Part shown: piece by piece, positions 14,523 to 54,474 of the stretch
Layout: each line of letters starts with the position of its first letter
Numbering within the stretch: position 1 is the first letter of the stretch
DNA from: Mobula hypostoma
Taxonomy: Eukaryota
DNA length: 64,000 nt
Direction: 5' to 3'
Assembly: GCF_963921235.1 (NCBI RefSeq)
Contig: NC_086097.1
Span: 55,182,001 to 55,246,000, forward strand
Translations under genes and position numbers: made by a program
Notes under the pieces: generated by a model
What the model saw: only the letters and a program-made list of their open reading frames with translations
What the model was told of the DNA's origin: nothing
The model's database searches: none

Positions 14523-16128
14523 CAGTAAAAGTTTGGGCACCCCGGTCAAAATTTCTGTTACTGTGAATAGCTGAACGAATCAAAGATGACCTGATTTCCA
14601 AAAGACACAAAGTTAAAGATGACACATTAATATTTTAAGCAAGATTACTTTTTTATTTCCATCTTTTACAGTGTCAAAATAACAAAAAAGGAAAAGGGCC
14701 CAAAGCAAAAGTTTGGGCACCCTGCATGGTCAGTACTTAGTAACACCCCCTTTGCCAAGTATCACAGCTTGTAAACGCTTTCTGTAGCCAGCTAAGAGTC
14801 TTTCAATTCTTGTTTGGGGATTTTTGCCCATTCTTCCTTGCAAAAGGCTTCTAGTTCTGTGAGATTCTTGGGCTGTCATGCATGCACTGCTCTTTTGAGG
14901 TCTATCCACAGATTCTCGATGATGTTTAGGTCAGGGGACTGTGAGGGCCATGGCAAAACCTTCAGCTTGCGCCTCTTGAGGTAGTCCATTGTGGATTTTG
15001 AGGTGTGTTTAGGATCATTATCCTGTTGTAGAAGCCATCCTCTTTTCGTCTTCAGCTTTTTTACAGACGGTGTGATGTTTGCTTCCAGAATTTGCTGGTA
15101 TTTAATTGAATTCATTCTTCCCTTTACCAGTGAAACGTTCCCCTTGCCACAGGCTGCAACACAAGCCCAAAGCATGATCGATCCACCCCCGTGCTTAACA
15201 GTTGGAGAGGTGTTCTTTTCATGAAATTCTGCACCCTTTTTTCTCCAAACATACCTTTGCTGATTGCAGCCAAAAAGTTCTATTTTAACTTCATCAGTCC
15301 ACAGGACTTGTTTCCAAAATGCATCAGGCTTGTTTAGATGTTCCTTTGCAAACTTCTGACACTGAATTTTGTGGTGAGAACACAGGAAAGGTTTTCTTCT
15401 GATGACTCTTCCATGAAGGTCCTATTTGTGCAGGTGTCGCTGCATAGTAGAACAGTGCACCACCACTCCAGAGTCTGCTAATTCTTCCTGAAGGTCTCTT
15501 GCAGTCAAATGGGGGTTTTGATTTGCCTTTCTAGCAATCCTATGAGCAGTTCTCTCGGAAAGTTTTCTTGGTCTTCCAGACCTCAACTTGACCTCCACCG
15601 TTCCTGTTAACTACCATTTCTTAATTACATTACGAACTGAGGAAACGGCTACCTGAAAACGCTTTGCTATCTTCTTATAGCTTTCTCCTGCTTTTGTGGG
15701 CATCATTTATTTTAATTTTCAGAGTGCTAGGCAGCTGCTTAGAGGAGCCCATGGCTGCTGATTATTGAGACGAGGTTTGAGGAGTCAGGGTATTTATAAA
15801 GCTTTGAAATTTGCATCACCTGGCCTTTCCTAATGATGATTGTGAACAAGCCATAGCCCTAACAAGCTAATTAAGGTCTGAGACCTTGGTAAAAGTTATC
15901 TGAGAGCTCAAATCTCTTGGGGTGTCCAAACCTTTGCATGGTGCTCCTTTCCTTTTTCCCCCACTCTAAAATTGTACAAAACAAAAATAATACACTAATT
16001 TTAAAATGTTGCAAAGAATGTTTCATCTTTAACTCTGACTTTTGGAGATCAGTTCATCTTCTACTCACTTAACTATTCACAGTAACAGAAATTTTGACCA
16101 TGGGTGCCCAAACTTACGCATACCACTG
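14523..16128 (-). mobile_element. Tc1 (DD34E, IR/DR type) transposon, full length, defective; copy 1
   Basis: TA on both sides, CAGT...CACTG ends, ~200-bp TIRs with repeated AAAAGTTTGGGCACCC, transposase motifs QQDNDPKH and SPDLNIIENLW. Confidence 0.93.
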
Positions 16129-16592
16129 TACATATGGTACATTTTCATTGCCTGTCTCCAATATTCTGTGACTCTCAGCATTCTGGTCATGCCCTCTACC
16201 ATCACGGAGGAGGTGCAGGAGCCTGAAGACCCATATTCAACAAATTGTGAACAGCTTCTTTCCCTCCATCAGATTCCTGGAATGGTCCAGGAACTCTAAC
16301 TTATTATTGCTTTTGTACTATTTATTTTGTAATTTAAAGCTTTTTATCTTTACTCTTGCTACAAAACAACAAATTTTCATCAGATAAGACAGTGGTAATA
16401 AGCTTGATTCTTATTCTGATGTGAACTGGTGCTGTTTTCAGTTGTCAACTAAAATTACTTGAGGTTTTTTTTTGCACTGCTTTTTTTTCCCCCAAGTACT
16501 GTTGCAAATTTTATAGTCTAATCCCATAATTTGAACTTTAAATTTGCAAAGAATCATTTCTACAATTGTAATCCCTAAAATATTTCATTCAG

Positions 16593-16687: not shown

Positions 16688-17510
16688 GTGAGTATCCTTG
16701 AGAGCTAAAATGATAAATATGAATCATTGCTGTTTTGTTGTTTATTATTTCCGCAATAGCAAATCCACAGAACTGAAATGGAAGCAATTTGCCTCAACCT
16801 TTGGGGACTGCTGAAGATAATTACTTTTAATATTTTTCAGTCCATTAATGGTAAAGGGACACTTGGGTTGATTGAACTTCCATGTGAGTTGATTACAATT
16901 TTTTTTTGTTAAAAGTTAAGCCAACATAGTAATACATTTAAAATTTAAGTGAAAATTCAAATTGCAGTTAGGACAAATATTTTAATGGAAGTAATTGTCA
17001 ACTATACAAATTCTACTTGAAGTGAACAAATTAGTTTAATTTCATGGAAAATGACTATTAAAAATGAATATTATAACATTGTAATTGCTGGAAATCTGAA
17101 GTAAAGGAAAATGTTGAAGGCACTCTGACCTGCGTGTTTTCAGCATTTTCTGTTTATATAATTACAACTTTGTTGGAATGAATATGACTCTTTATGTGAT
17201 TAAATCCTTGGTCCCTAAAGGAAGCCTTCTATTTCAATGAACATAATTATTTAGCTGCCTTGATTATTGTTAGAGATTCCAGAGGACTGTATTTCTGAAT
17301 TTGAGCTGACCTCTCCTCCACAAACTCTGGAATAACTTCATTTGCACCATCTGATGGCTGACTTGCTATTCTAAATTCTTAGCTTTTTAAGAGGAGAAAA
17401 CTACTGTCAATAGCTAATATATCCAACTAAGTATTCAGTTTGGTTCTGAGCTGCAACACTCATTTGATCTCAAAGATGTGCCTTCTATTGAAATGAAATG
17501 GAAAGGTATA

Positions 17511-40636: not shown

Positions 40637-43170
40637 AAACAGAAAACCTACAGCACAATACAGGCCCTTCGGCCCACAATGCTGAGCCGAACATGTACCT
40701 TAGAAATTACTTAGGGTTACCCATAGCCCTCTATTTTTTTCTAAGCTCCATGTACCTATCCAGGAGTCTCTTAAAAGACCCTATCATATCTGCCTCCACC
40801 ACCGCTGCCGGCAGCCCATTCCGCACACTTGCCAGTATCTGTGAAGGGAAAAGAAAACCTTATCCCTGACATCTCTTCTGTACCTACTTCAAAGCACCTT
40901 AAAACCATATCAGCCCTGGGAAGAAGCCTCTCACTATCCACATGATCATTGCCTCTCATCATCTTATACACCTCAACCACATCACCTCTCATCATCCGTT
41001 GCTCCAAGGAGAAAAGACTGAGTTCACTCAACCTTTTCTCATAAGGCATGCTCCCCAATCCAGGCAACATCCTTGTAAATCTCCCCTGCACCCTTTCTAT
41101 AGTTTCCACAACCTTCCTGTAGTGAGGTGACCAGAACTGAGCACAGTACTCCAAGTGGGGTCTGACCAGGGTCCTATATACAGTGGCATGCAAAAGTTTG
41201 GGCACCCCTGGTCAAGATTTCTGTGATTGTGAATAACTAAGCGAGTAAAAGATGCCCTGATTTCCAAAAGGCACAAAGTTAAAGATGACACATTTCTTTA
41301 ATATTTTAAGCAAGATTACATTTTTTATTTCCACCTTTTACAGTTTCAAAATAACAAAAAAGGAAAAGGGCCCAAAACAAAAGTTTGGGCACCCTGCATG
41401 GTCAGTACTTAGTAACACCCCCTTTGGCAAGTATCACAGCTTGTAAATGCTTTCTGTAACTAGCTAAGAGTCTTTCAATTCTTGTTTGGGGGATTTTCAC
41501 TTATTCTTCCTTGCAAAAGGCTTCTAGTTCTGTGAGATTCTTGGACCGCATTGCACTGCATTTTTGAGGTCTATCCACAGATTCTCGATGATGTTTAGGT
41601 TGGGGGACTGTGAGGACCATGGCAAAACCTTCAGCTTGCGCCTCTTGAGGTAGTCCATTGTGGATTTTGAGGTGTGTTTAGGATCATTATCCTGTTGTAG
41701 AAACCATCCTCTTTTCATCTTCAGCTTTTTTACAGACAGTGTGATGTTTGCTTCCAGAATTTGCTGGTATTTAATTTTACTCATTCTTCCCTCTACCAGT
41801 GAAATGTTCCCCGTGCCACAGGCTGCAACACAAGCCCAAAGCATGATCGATCCACCCCAGTGATTAACAGTTGGAGAAGTGTTCTTTTCATGAAATTCTG
41901 CACCCTTTTTTCTCCAAACATACCTTTGCTCATTGCGGCCAAAAAGTTCTATTTTAACTTCATCAGTCCACAGGACTTGTTTCCAAAATGCATCAGGCTT
42001 GTTTAGGTGTTCCTTTGCAAACTTCTGACACTGAATTTTGTGGTGAGAACACAGGAAAGGTTTTCTTCTGATGACTCTTCCATGAAGGTCATATTTGTGC
42101 AGGTGTCGCTGCACAGTAGAACAGTGCACCACCACTCCAGAGTCTGCTAAATCTTCCTGAACGTAAATGGGGGTTTTGATTTGCCTTTCTAGCAATCCTG
42201 TGAGCAGTTCTCTGGGAAAGTTTTCTTGGTCTTCCAGACCTCAACTTGACCTCCACCATTCCTATTAACTGCCATTTCTTAATTACATTACGAACTGAGG
42301 AAACAGCTAACTGAAAACACTTTGCTATCTTCTTGTAGCTTTCTCCTGCTTTGTGGGCATCATTTATTTTAATTTTCAGAGTGCTAGGCAGCTGTTTAGA
42401 GGAGCCCGTGGCTGCTGATTGTTGGGACAAGGATTGAGGAGTCAGGGTATTTATAAAGCTTTGAAATTTGCATCACCTGGCCTTTCCTAACAGTGACTGT
42501 GAACAAGCCATAGCCCTAACAAGCTAATTAAGATCTGAGACCTTGGTAAAAGTTATCTGAGAGCTCAAATCTCTTGGGGTGTCCAAACCTTTGCATGGTG
42601 CTCCTTTCCTTTTTTCCACTCTGAAATTGCACAAAACAAAAATAATACACTAATCTTGCTTAAAATGTTGAAAAGAATGTTTCATCTTTAACTTTATGAC
42701 TTTTGGAGATCAGTTCATCTTCTACTCACTTAACTATTCACAGAAATGTTGACCATAGGTGCCCAAACTTTTGCATGCCACTGTAGCTGTAACATTACCT
42801 CTTGGCTCTTGAACTCAATCCCATGATTGATGAAGGCCAATGCACCGTATGCCTTCTTAACCACAAAGACAACCTGCACTGCAGCTTTTGAGTGTCCGAT
42901 GGGTATGCACCCCAAGATCCCTCTGATCCTCCACACTGCCAAGAGTCTTACCATTAATACTATATTCTGCCATCATATTTGACCTACCAAAATGAACCAC
43001 GTCACACTTACCTGGATTGAACTCCATCTGCCACTTCTCAGCCCAGTTTTGCATCCTATCAATGTCCCGCTGTAACCTCTGACAGCCCTCCACACTTTCC
43101 ACAACACCCCCAACCTTTGTGTCATCAGCAAATGTACTAACCCATCCCTCCTCTTCCTCATCCAGCTCAT
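40637..43170 (-). mobile_element. CR1 LINE 3' portion, interrupted by Tc1 copy 2
   Basis: ORFs 42857-43102 (WAEKWQMEFNPGKC) and 40771-41205 (TLVRPHLEYCAQFWSP). Confidence 0.88.
41181..42783 (-). mobile_element. Tc1 (DD34E, IR/DR type) transposon, full length, frameshifted; copy 2
   Basis: TA|CAGTGGCATGCAAAAGTTTGGGCACC ... GGTGCCCAAACTTTTGCATGCCACTG|TA; ORFs 42089-42430 (GRPRK) and 41524-42195 (VLWTDE, QQDNDPKH, SPNLNIIENLW). Confidence 0.95.
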
Positions 43171-51684: not shown

Positions 51685-51762
51685 GATTATACAGATTGGC
51701 TGCAGGAGTTTGAGCGTGCTGCACAACAGACTTCATCTTCACTGCAAGCAGAGCAATCAAAG
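51685..51762 (+). CDS. KTN1: Kinectin exon 28/33: DYTDWLQEFERAAQQTSSSLQAEQSK
   Basis: ag/gt; 78 nt, phase 0-0; Y..WL..FE motif. Confidence 0.92.
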
Positions 51763-51975
51763 GTTTGCATGCTTGAATTCTGGCTAGTTTTAAGTATATT
51801 CCTCATTAATTTGTGTGTCTTAACTCATTATATAAAATCAGTTTCTGGTTATTGATAGAAATTGTTTGGAAAAGATCACCTTTGAGAGTTTGATGCCAAA
51901 TACAAGTCTGGATTTTGGGTTGTCTGGCGATGTTAACAGGAAATAATGAATGGAAAATATTATATGAAATGACAT

Positions 51976-52152
51976 GAGCAACACACACAAAATGCTGGAG
52001 GAACTCAGCAGGTCAGGCAGCATATATGGAAAAAAGTACAGCTAGAAAGTACTTTTTTCCATAGATGCTGCCTGGCCTGCTGAGCTCCTCTAGCATTTTG
52101 TGTGTGTGTGTTGCTCGGATTTCTAGCATCTACAGAATTTCTCTTGTTTGTG
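51976..52152. mobile_element. Palindromic Penelope-derived insertion
   Basis: ~62-bp arms 51976-52039 / 52049-52116; flanking direct repeat TGAAATGAC at 51965-51973 and 52156-52164. Confidence 0.78.
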
Positions 52153-53329
52153 ACCTGAAATGACCTCATCATTTTAATGATTTAAATTAAAGTAAATTCT
52201 CCAGTGCTACTTCATCCCTCAATGCTGAAATGAAACGTGAAGGAGTACCACTTAGTGCGGTGATGACCAGAGACTACCCCTTATAGATATAGAACAGTTC
52301 TGAGGCTATTGGAGATGAGCTTCTGCTTTTCTTTCTTTGAATTGTTAGTGATTTGAAGACATTAAAAATAATCTTTTCTATATATATTACCATTTGTAGA
52401 TTGTATATTTTCAAAGAAAATAATTCTGACAATGAATAAACCTGATATTTCATTGCACTTAAACTATTATTGATTTTTTTTTAACTAATCTTGAAAGCAT
52501 AAATAGAAAAGTAGATAATTTTGCCACTTGTGGCTGCAACACAATTCAATGACATCTCGGCTTATCTTGTGCATCATTGTCACATTCCTGCACCAACCCA
52601 TAACCCTTGATTCCCTTATTATCAAAATATCTCCTGAACTCTGTTTTGAATATAGTCAGTCGCTAAGGTCCCTTTGCCCTCTGAGGAATGCAATTCTACA
52701 GATTCTCCACTTGGTAGATGAAGAAGATTCTTCTCATTTTTCCACCCAACTGCACATGTATCTTGTTGAAACATGTATGGATTTGGTGCACTTCAATGAA
52801 ACCGCCTTATTCTTTAAATTCAGCTGACGCTGGGCACAGTCAGTATAATCCTGCCCCACAGGACGAACTACTATTTCTTTAAGCAAGCTTATTCACCTTG
52901 CATGTTTTGCCCTTGACTATCGTTAGAAAATTGGTGATACATTGAACTGTAGGACTGTGATGTTTTCAATCCAAGACATTTATTGTAGATAAAATTACTT
53001 TTAATATGTTAAAGGTGTATCTATAGTCTTATCTCATAAAATGTAGAAATCAGTATTAATGCTAACATTTAATGTCCGTCTCTAATTGCCCCGAATTAAG
53101 GTAATTAAGAGCCATTCACAAAAAACTGACAATAAATGCAGCCAGTGCAGCATTTTCAAATGAACTCTTTGAAAGGGGAGAGTTGCTCTCTTGTACTTGA
53201 ATTAGTTCCCTGTCAATTTTTTTTGTTACTTTAAACCCATGATTTTTAAATCAATGTTTCTAAGCCTTTTCTGATCTAAATCTATTTTGACTATTTGTCA
53301 GCACTATGAAATTAAAGTTGTGCTTAAGG

Positions 53330-53810
53330 CCAAGTAGCATAATGCACAACTAAGTGCTTTTGCCTCACAGGCTCTGGCAACTCATGCTCAATCCTGACTT
53401 TCAGTGTTGCCTGTGTGGAAATTGCACACTCACCTTGCGACTCTGTCTCCACTTCCTTAAAAAAAATTTGTTTTGGTGGATTCATTGGCCCTCGTGTGTA
53501 GATAAGTGATAGAATTCAAGAGATGGGTAAAGATGAGAATGAGAATTTCTTGTTTCTTTGTCCTCACTCTCTGAGTTGATGAGTTGACTTCAGCATGTTT
53601 GTCTGTTTAAATGTGCAAGTTATATTATTTATTGGTCATGCTTAAAATTTAGATCATGGAACAAAAAGAAAAGGAAGCTGAAGAGATGCATGCAATGTTG
53701 CAGTTAGAACAGTCTATTAGTCTAAGATTAGTATTTTGAAGGAATAAAAGTGCTTTATGGTTGGCACTGACTTCTTTGGCTGAAGAGCTTTTTCCATGAC
53801 AATGTATCCA
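53330..53810 (+). mobile_element. Decayed V-SINE/HE1-like SINE interrupted by a duplicated KTN1 segment
   Basis: tRNA-like head (GCCTCACAG...TCAATCCTGAC), TGTGTGGAAATTGCACA central motif, CR1-like tail at ~53750-53810. Confidence 0.5.
53653..53739 (+). pseudogene. KTN1: Partial duplicate of kinectin exon 29 (pseudo-exon or alternative last exon): IMEQKEKEAEEMHAMLQLEQSISLRLVF*
   Basis: 53653-53709 matches 54201-54257 with 2 substitutions, preceded by a copied acceptor; TGA 53737-53739; AATAAA 53743-53748. Confidence 0.85.
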
Positions 53811-54200
53811 TTTATTTCTCACACTACAAGAAGTAAATTTGCATTATACTGAGCCAAGACTATTCAGTTGACAGAAGTATAGAGGCAGTGAACAAAATCA
53901 TCATGTATTTTATTAATTTCTGGGATATTTTGGTCAAGTAGAACCAGTGGAACTACAAACAGGAATGAATTGAAACCCTGGTTGGTCAGTTTGTCTTTTT
54001 GCAAAGGAGTACCTATCGTGCTTGCTTTGAATAATACGTTCAATTTTTAACATCCCCTTAAATCTATTTTCTTGGTTCTTTGCTCTCTCTCTCTGTCTCT
54101 CTCTCTGTCTCTGGGCATTTGAGTTGATAAATTGACTTCAGGATGTTTATGTGTTTAAATGTGCAAGTTGTATTATTTATTGGTCATGTTTAAAATTTAG

Positions 54201-54290
54201 GTCATGGAACAAAAAGAAAAGGAAGCTGAAGAGATGCATGCAATGTTGCAGTCAGAATGCGAGAAGTACAAAACGGTACTTGCGGAAACG
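54201..54290 (+). CDS. KTN1: Kinectin exon 29/33: VMEQKEKEAEEMHAMLQSECEKYKTVLAET
   Basis: ag/gtaagc; 90 nt, phase 0-0; ECEKYK.VLAET motif. Confidence 0.96.
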
Positions 54291-54381: not shown

Positions 54382-54474
54382 GAAGGGATTTTGCAAAGGT
54401 TGCAAAGCAGTGTTGAAGAAGAGGAAGGCAAATGGAAGATGAAACTGGAAGAATCACAGAAGGCATTACTGCAG
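54382..54474 (+). CDS. KTN1: Kinectin exon 30/33: EGILQRLQSSVEEEEGKWKMKLEESQKALLQ
   Basis: cag/gtatgg; 93 nt, phase 0-0. Confidence 0.96.

Follow-up and report, generated by a model that had tools for sequence, protein, structure and literature searches.

Does an intron of the kinectin gene of a devil ray hold a second, earlier ending for the protein? The question is raised by positions 53546-53709 of a 64,000-nucleotide stretch of Mobula hypostoma DNA (the window), where the end of an intron and the start of the exon that follows it have been copied back into that same intron, with a stop codon and a poly(A) signal close behind. The first-pass annotation saw in this a candidate alternative last exon or, failing that, a poison exon or a small in-frame cassette. 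The answer reached here, held with considerable confidence, is that the copy is old and real and most likely a silent fossil pseudoexon, not a new protein ending.

That the gene is KTN1, as had been proposed, is secure. All 33 exons placed by spliced matching spell residues 423-1283 of RefSeq M. hypostoma isoform X1 (P0124) letter for letter, and a search with a window exon retrieved kinectin, with M. hypostoma and M. birostris at 100% among the best 120 of 1340 matches. The X1 protein carries PF05104. Three exons on the + strand are central: 51685-51762 (residues 1117-1142, phase 0 donor), 54201-54290 (90 nt, residues 1143-1172) and 54382-54474 (residues 1173-1203), and the copy lies in the 2.4-kb intron between the first two. 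For human KTN1 (1357 aa) the accessible part of PMC11580933 places the binding of CDR2 and eEF1B-beta at 1114-1153 and that of KIF5 at 1188-1288; the duplicated exon falls at about 1117-1146 by position in a 1357-aa bird orthologue, the human sequence itself being unaligned. Within the true exon, at 54252-54254, a Leu to Ser change common to Mobula, Hypanus and Hemitrygon sits in the near-invariant motif LQLECEKYK, which by position is in the region matching the human CDR2/eEF1B-binding site. A search for a solved structure of kinectin found none, and the two matches to Rfam were both sub-threshold and outside the copy region.

What was copied? Positions 53546-53709 duplicate 54068-54257 on the same strand, as had been noticed earlier, and self comparison of the whole window agrees, this being the sole copy of a KTN1 exon among its matches. 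The core, 53572-53709 against 54120-54257, aligns over 138 nt without a gap and is identical at 129 of them (93.5%, E 1e-55), with seven of the nine differences in 81 intronic nt and two in 57 exonic nt (A53653 for G54201 and T53705 for C54253). To its left a further 26-28 nt correspond (53546-53573 with 54068-54095), an alignment that beats all 641 intronic tiles, and at a CT microsatellite the source is longer by 26 nt. The copied intron end (53546-53652) comprises a pyrimidine tract, a branch region and an AG at 53651-53652 that is intact in Mobula; the copied exon start (53653-53709) has its first base changed from G to A, turning Val into Ile, and an ancestral Leu codon at 53704-53706. 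The exon was not copied in full with its two splice sites: only 57 nt of its 90 were taken, ending 33 nt short of the source exon's donor. Read from 53653, the frame runs for 28 residues to a TGA at 53737-53739, with AATAAA beginning at 53743 and an in-frame GT after 53730, all present as had been claimed. The G/T-rich run described with them also exists, but it immediately follows AATAAA, which puts it ahead of the usual cleavage zone and not beyond it. As judged from sequence this is an ordinary intragenic partial-exon duplication, with 358 nt of other sequence separating copy from source.

How might a fragment of exon come to sit there? It is bordered on the left by a decayed SINE-like 5′ part (53320-53545, + strand, left boundary approximate) and on the right by a repeat-derived tail (53710-53810, + strand, right boundary approximate) which contains the stop, the AATAAA (to 53748) and the weak GT. 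In three DNA runs and one RNA run, 53373-53435 and 53469-53515 are covered by stacks of contigs from other loci, the left repeat being one of high copy number, and a motif scan found A-box-like and B-box-like motifs at 53335-53345 and 53386-53394; a weaker pile-up of repeat contigs, in the X10 and X11 DNA runs, covers 53751-53800. Elements of the V-SINE or HE1 type are tRNA-derived SINEs of sharks and rays, and the flanks resemble them in a 5′ part with A/B-box-like motifs, in a 3′ part like a LINE tail and in being abundant in ray genomes, whereas the ray flanks are heavily decayed and interrupted; the flanking SINE may be of this type. No tRNA was called in the left flank, no second copy of the flanking SINE was found within the 64,000 nt, scans of metagenomes with the SINE flanks gave 0 and 3 matches, the 3 being chance ones in unrelated DNA, and the accessible part of PMC5499810 has no passage on HE1. 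Of three LINE-type tails in the window, one is matched by the right flank better than by any of 1000 shuffles, a weak likeness given that one intron control reached the same 39. The suggestion that the flanks are two halves of one SINE is borne out in part, by repeat contigs on both sides and by the box-like motifs on the left; the flanks fit one tRNA-derived SINE that the copy may have interrupted. At 53483-53490 in the left flank organisms C and E have 14 extra nt, probably reflecting a 14-nt deletion in Mobula.

The best model for the origin of the copy is DNA-templated insertion during break repair. A DNA break would have occurred within the decaying SINE-like repeat in this KTN1 intron, and its repair would have copied some 165-190 nt from 0.5 kb downstream on the same strand, presumably by microhomology-mediated template switching. 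The acceptor and 57 nt of exon would have been taken and the donor not, and the stop and AATAAA behind them would be repeat sequence. Templated insertion into a repeat, as had been suggested, accords with the repeat DNA on both sides and with an AGAA at both junctions (53542-53545 and 53706-53709, the latter also the template end), a match of 4 nt only that is weak and was found post hoc. Both intron and exon are represented in the copy, which breaks off within the exon and carries no poly(A) tail. A silent relic made by another route is unlikely, whether by reverse transcription of a pre-mRNA into a break or by a tandem duplication with later insertion or deletion: the SINE halves without alignment to a consensus, and the finding of no empty insertion site among three relatives, all of which carry the insertion, leave it some room, but the copy's end lacks a poly(A) tail, nothing in 53710-54067 matches what lies to the left of the copy, and repeat sequence on both sides together with the short junction repeat speaks for insertion. 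Simple tandem duplication of a 548-nt unit was considered and is ruled out, homology stopping at the copy. Microhomology-flanked insertions (MMB-TI/MMBIR) occur as human germline variants (PMC8421209, seen in part) and share with the ray copy a short insert from a nearby template and a short junction repeat, but the ray template is about 0.5 kb off where the yeast events described in that part are within 100 bp, and the ray event is fixed and old, so that its pathway is not nameable. Polymerase-theta templated insertions may form a comparable class of short templated inserts.

Could the copy be an artefact of assembly? The chance is negligible, with nothing to favour it beyond what holds a priori. 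The copy is present in DNA contigs of all three relatives examined, organisms C, D and E (word shares 0.21, 0.17 and 0.17; about 94-95% identity): the entire stretch is on one contig in E, with 65 differing letters, in D a single contig spans copy and source, and in C the two ends of the copy are found, on two contigs. This comparison disposes of the earlier concern about misassembly. Further against it, the copy diverges from its source by 6.5%, and four DNA runs of organism A, which may be the source sample, contain 0.88-0.94 of the words. A second contig of organism E (run X11) also lies on the exonic copy, at 53628-53709, and fits two places; it may be an allele or a further copy.

How old is it? 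The second exonic difference changes a residue, Leu in the copy but Ser in the true exon. In the set of proteins compared, Ser is found only in Mobula, Hypanus and Hemitrygon, and Leu in Pristis, Narcine, skates, sharks, chimaera and nearly all birds. Most simply read, the copy retains the ancestral base and arose before devil rays and whiptail stingrays parted, hence before the lineages of Mobula, Hypanus and Hemitrygon separated, a chance C to T reversion being possible. The event would date to a common ancestor of Mobula and the other rays examined, ahead of the Leu to Ser change. The presence of the copy in the DNA contigs of C, D and E is likewise consistent with great age. When the seven intronic differences are polarised with the relatives, the Mobula source has changed at three (54129, 54142 and 54189, of which 54142 pairs with copy position 53594) and the Mobula copy at three (53583, 53601 and 53622), with 53603 having no listed row; most of the divergence therefore postdates the lineage split, both copies having drifted alike. 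At four sites D and E have a base found in neither Mobula copy; gene conversion was entertained for these and set aside, two tracts being needed and C having no coverage there; changes on the branch to D and E would be simpler. According to the available part of PMC6485097, stingrays diversified in the late Late Cretaceous, and the pelagic ones originated close to the K-Pg boundary. These dates suggest an insertion age of 66 million years or more, and the insertion was probably Late Cretaceous.

Is the copy spliced into mRNA? The earlier expectation was a junction from 51762 to 53653. In the organism A RNA run X18 a single contig of depth 302.8 covers 54199-54289 and continues over a 91-nt intron into the next exon, and its loose ends match the last 30 nt of exon 51685-51762 on one side and the beginning of exon 56247 on the other. 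The contig joins the upstream exon to 54201 instead, which means that the main mRNA bypasses the copy. This evidence comes from one RNA run of six, in the form of assembled contigs, which drop rare forms; with that proviso no X18 contig covers 53464-54160, copy included, and none has a joint from 53730 to 54201. Of 122 words, the four best-matching RNA runs, X15-X18 (from two studies, on organisms A and B), each contain 0.12, where exons alone would be expected to give 0.11-0.13 and exons plus tail 0.15-0.19, which is a hint only. None of the seven Mobula RefSeq isoforms (three of M. hypostoma and four of M. birostris, in two clusters) uses the copy, all being full length with the true exon, and neither the new tail nor a doubled motif occurs in the 147 proteins compared. 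A search for shorter proteins with 1088-1143 of P0001 gave one match in 14 candidates, an unrelated whale-shark fragment. Annotation can pick up minor lineage-specific exons, since the M. birostris RefSeq models do carry another such KTN1 exon, of 57 nt and transposon-derived, in three models.

The splice signals point the same way. With crude matrices built from the gene's own 33 sites (leave-one-out), the copied acceptor scores -0.02 bits and the true acceptor 2.55, in a range of 0.7-13.0 for the 33 real acceptors, and the copy's own change at its first base reduces its score. Given how weak the true acceptor is, the copied one may be more competent than its score, and with the AG intact in Mobula the branch and enhancer context that came with it might still function. 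It had been argued that the copied acceptor, preceding the true one, would be met first; actually its score is equalled or beaten by 898 of 2380 intronic AGs, including 37 that precede it in this intron, and the argument loses its force. In an intron of 2.4 kb exon definition applies, and a copy without a donor is therefore not definable as an internal exon. The GT after 53730 scores 1.4 bits, below 32 of 33 real donors and reached by 29% of 2246 intronic GTs. Donors after 53832 and 53904 score 5.6 and 7.1 bits, within the range of real donors, and both are behind the stop, which would make inclusion through them a target of NMD. The AATAAA, 4 nt beyond the stop, is by contrast uncommonly placed and counts against a silent copy: among 20000 random intronic frames one was found within 10 nt of the stop in 1.2% and within 50 nt in 5.6%.

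A conserved exon would be expected to keep its AG. At 53651 both relatives that cover the site, D and E, have C for A, so that the AG reads CG, C being without cover; this counts against conserved use, and the hoped-for conservation of splice signals in relatives is not seen. D and E are also changed at 53644. Nor do the two exonic substitutions speak for constraint, as had been supposed: exonic and intronic differences between copy and source (2/57 against 7/81, p = 0.31) do not differ significantly at these small counts, nor do copy-side changes alone (1/57 against 4/81, p = 0.65, again small counts), and one of the two exonic changes occurred in the true exon. Downstream, organism C has at most two differences in 53656-53769, with 23 of the 25 differences listed for its contig elsewhere, and among the differences listed, 67 more lying outside them, none in 53652-53769 is common to two relatives; the tail, including the stop and AATAAA, may be better kept in the relatives. 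In the 69 nt from 53583 to 53651 D and E share seven differences, as against 12 in some 707 non-exonic nt elsewhere (Fisher p = 0.0007, the region being chosen post hoc and only listed differences counted). This excess could be erosion of the acceptor region, through selection against a cryptic site, or local rate variation, of which the 12 changes of C in 53986-54038 are an example.

How, then, do the functional readings fare? An alternative last exon in Mobula, through the 53653 acceptor and cleavage after AATAAA, would give a kinectin of 1170 aa that keeps its membrane anchor and loses its last 236 residues. It has the merit of an intact AG, an in-frame reading, a stop and an AATAAA in order, the last unusually near the stop (1-6% by chance), of few listed tail changes in organism C, and of tandemly duplicated terminal exons being known elsewhere (PMC9013439, seen in part). 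But the RNA contig skips the copy, the AG is lost in D and E, no such protein is among the seven Mobula models, the acceptor is weak and the exonic part shows no excess conservation, all of which makes this reading quite improbable. A poison cassette, in which the same acceptor is joined to the donor after 53832 or 53904 to give an exon of 180 or 252 nt with its stop 93 nt or more ahead of the junction, is improbable to a slightly lesser degree: its donors are in the real range, and removal by NMD would account for its absence from both contigs and protein models, yet the lost AG in D and E leaves no conserved regulation, the acceptor is weak and positive evidence is nil. Most doubtful of these is a 78-nt in-frame cassette, 53653-53730, adding 26 residues of which 19 repeat the next exon; frame is kept and a GT is present, but against it stand that GT's poor rank among donors, the missing joint to 54201 in X18 and the lack of a doubled motif in any protein compared. 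The use for which the copy was first put forward, as last exon, poison exon or cassette, is opposed by the RNA contig, by all seven isoforms and by the CG of D and E.

A variant of these ideas limits function to devil rays: the old insertion would there be a tissue-limited last exon combining a KTN1 acceptor with a SINE-derived stop and poly(A) signal, the acceptor having been silenced in other rays. There is only a slender chance that this is so. If true, it would mean an ER-anchored kinectin that ends inside the region matching the human CDR2/eEF1B site and has lost the kinesin-binding stretch, so that the gene itself could switch the docking of motors and translation factors at the ER. To return to the fossil pseudoexon, use of the copy is most likely at noise level at most; copy and source would have drifted at similar rates since the insertion, while the spliceosome, to go by the dominant transcript, runs from 51762 to 54201.

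Elsewhere in the introns of this gene transposons have left other material. A Tc1/mariner copy at about 41180-42785 (transposase families PF01498 and PF13358) contains, antisense to itself, a 57-nt in-frame exon at 41344-41400 on the + strand with AG and GT intact; it is in M. birostris RefSeq X1, X2 and X4 and is absent from M. hypostoma X1-X3 and from three stingray models checked. This is a better candidate for a lineage-specific KTN1 cassette than the copy at 53653. A pair of such elements, 14527-16130 and 41192-42785, both in KTN1 introns, are 92.8% identical, and 14672-14728 in the first has the same cryptic exon sequence as 41344-41400. At 51981-52107 lies a MITE-like element with 59-nt inverted arms (93%), with relatives near 17510, 26900, 30280, 33010 and 36390.

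Where does the ray copy stand among known systems? According to the accessible part of PMC9013439, introns often contain homologues of exons, of which only a fraction is expressed, and the unannotated intragenic exon duplications described there resemble it in being exon homologues in a neighbouring intron, on the same strand and with an acceptor. They differ in that the ray copy has 57 of 90 nt, no donor and 358 nt between it and its source, and in that split reads or conservation, taken there as evidence of use, support no such use of the ray copy. Mammalian KTN1 has regulated C-terminal cassettes, exons V1-V5 (PMC12768868, available in part), which like the ray copy concern variation in the C-terminal coiled coil of kinectin and alter partner binding; those are expressed and regulated, unlike the copy, which is restricted to a single group of rays and lacks evidence of expression. 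Among the 15 of 2055 literature matches listed, none mentions kinectin, which is weak evidence for the absence of this case from print. If the copy were used, kinectin would be cut where its partners bind. As a relic its value is small, that of a dated partial exon copy that never turned exon, though it is a possible presence/absence marker for stingray phylogeny. In sharks and rays, which evolve slowly, the high identity of an intronic exon copy shows neither youth nor function.
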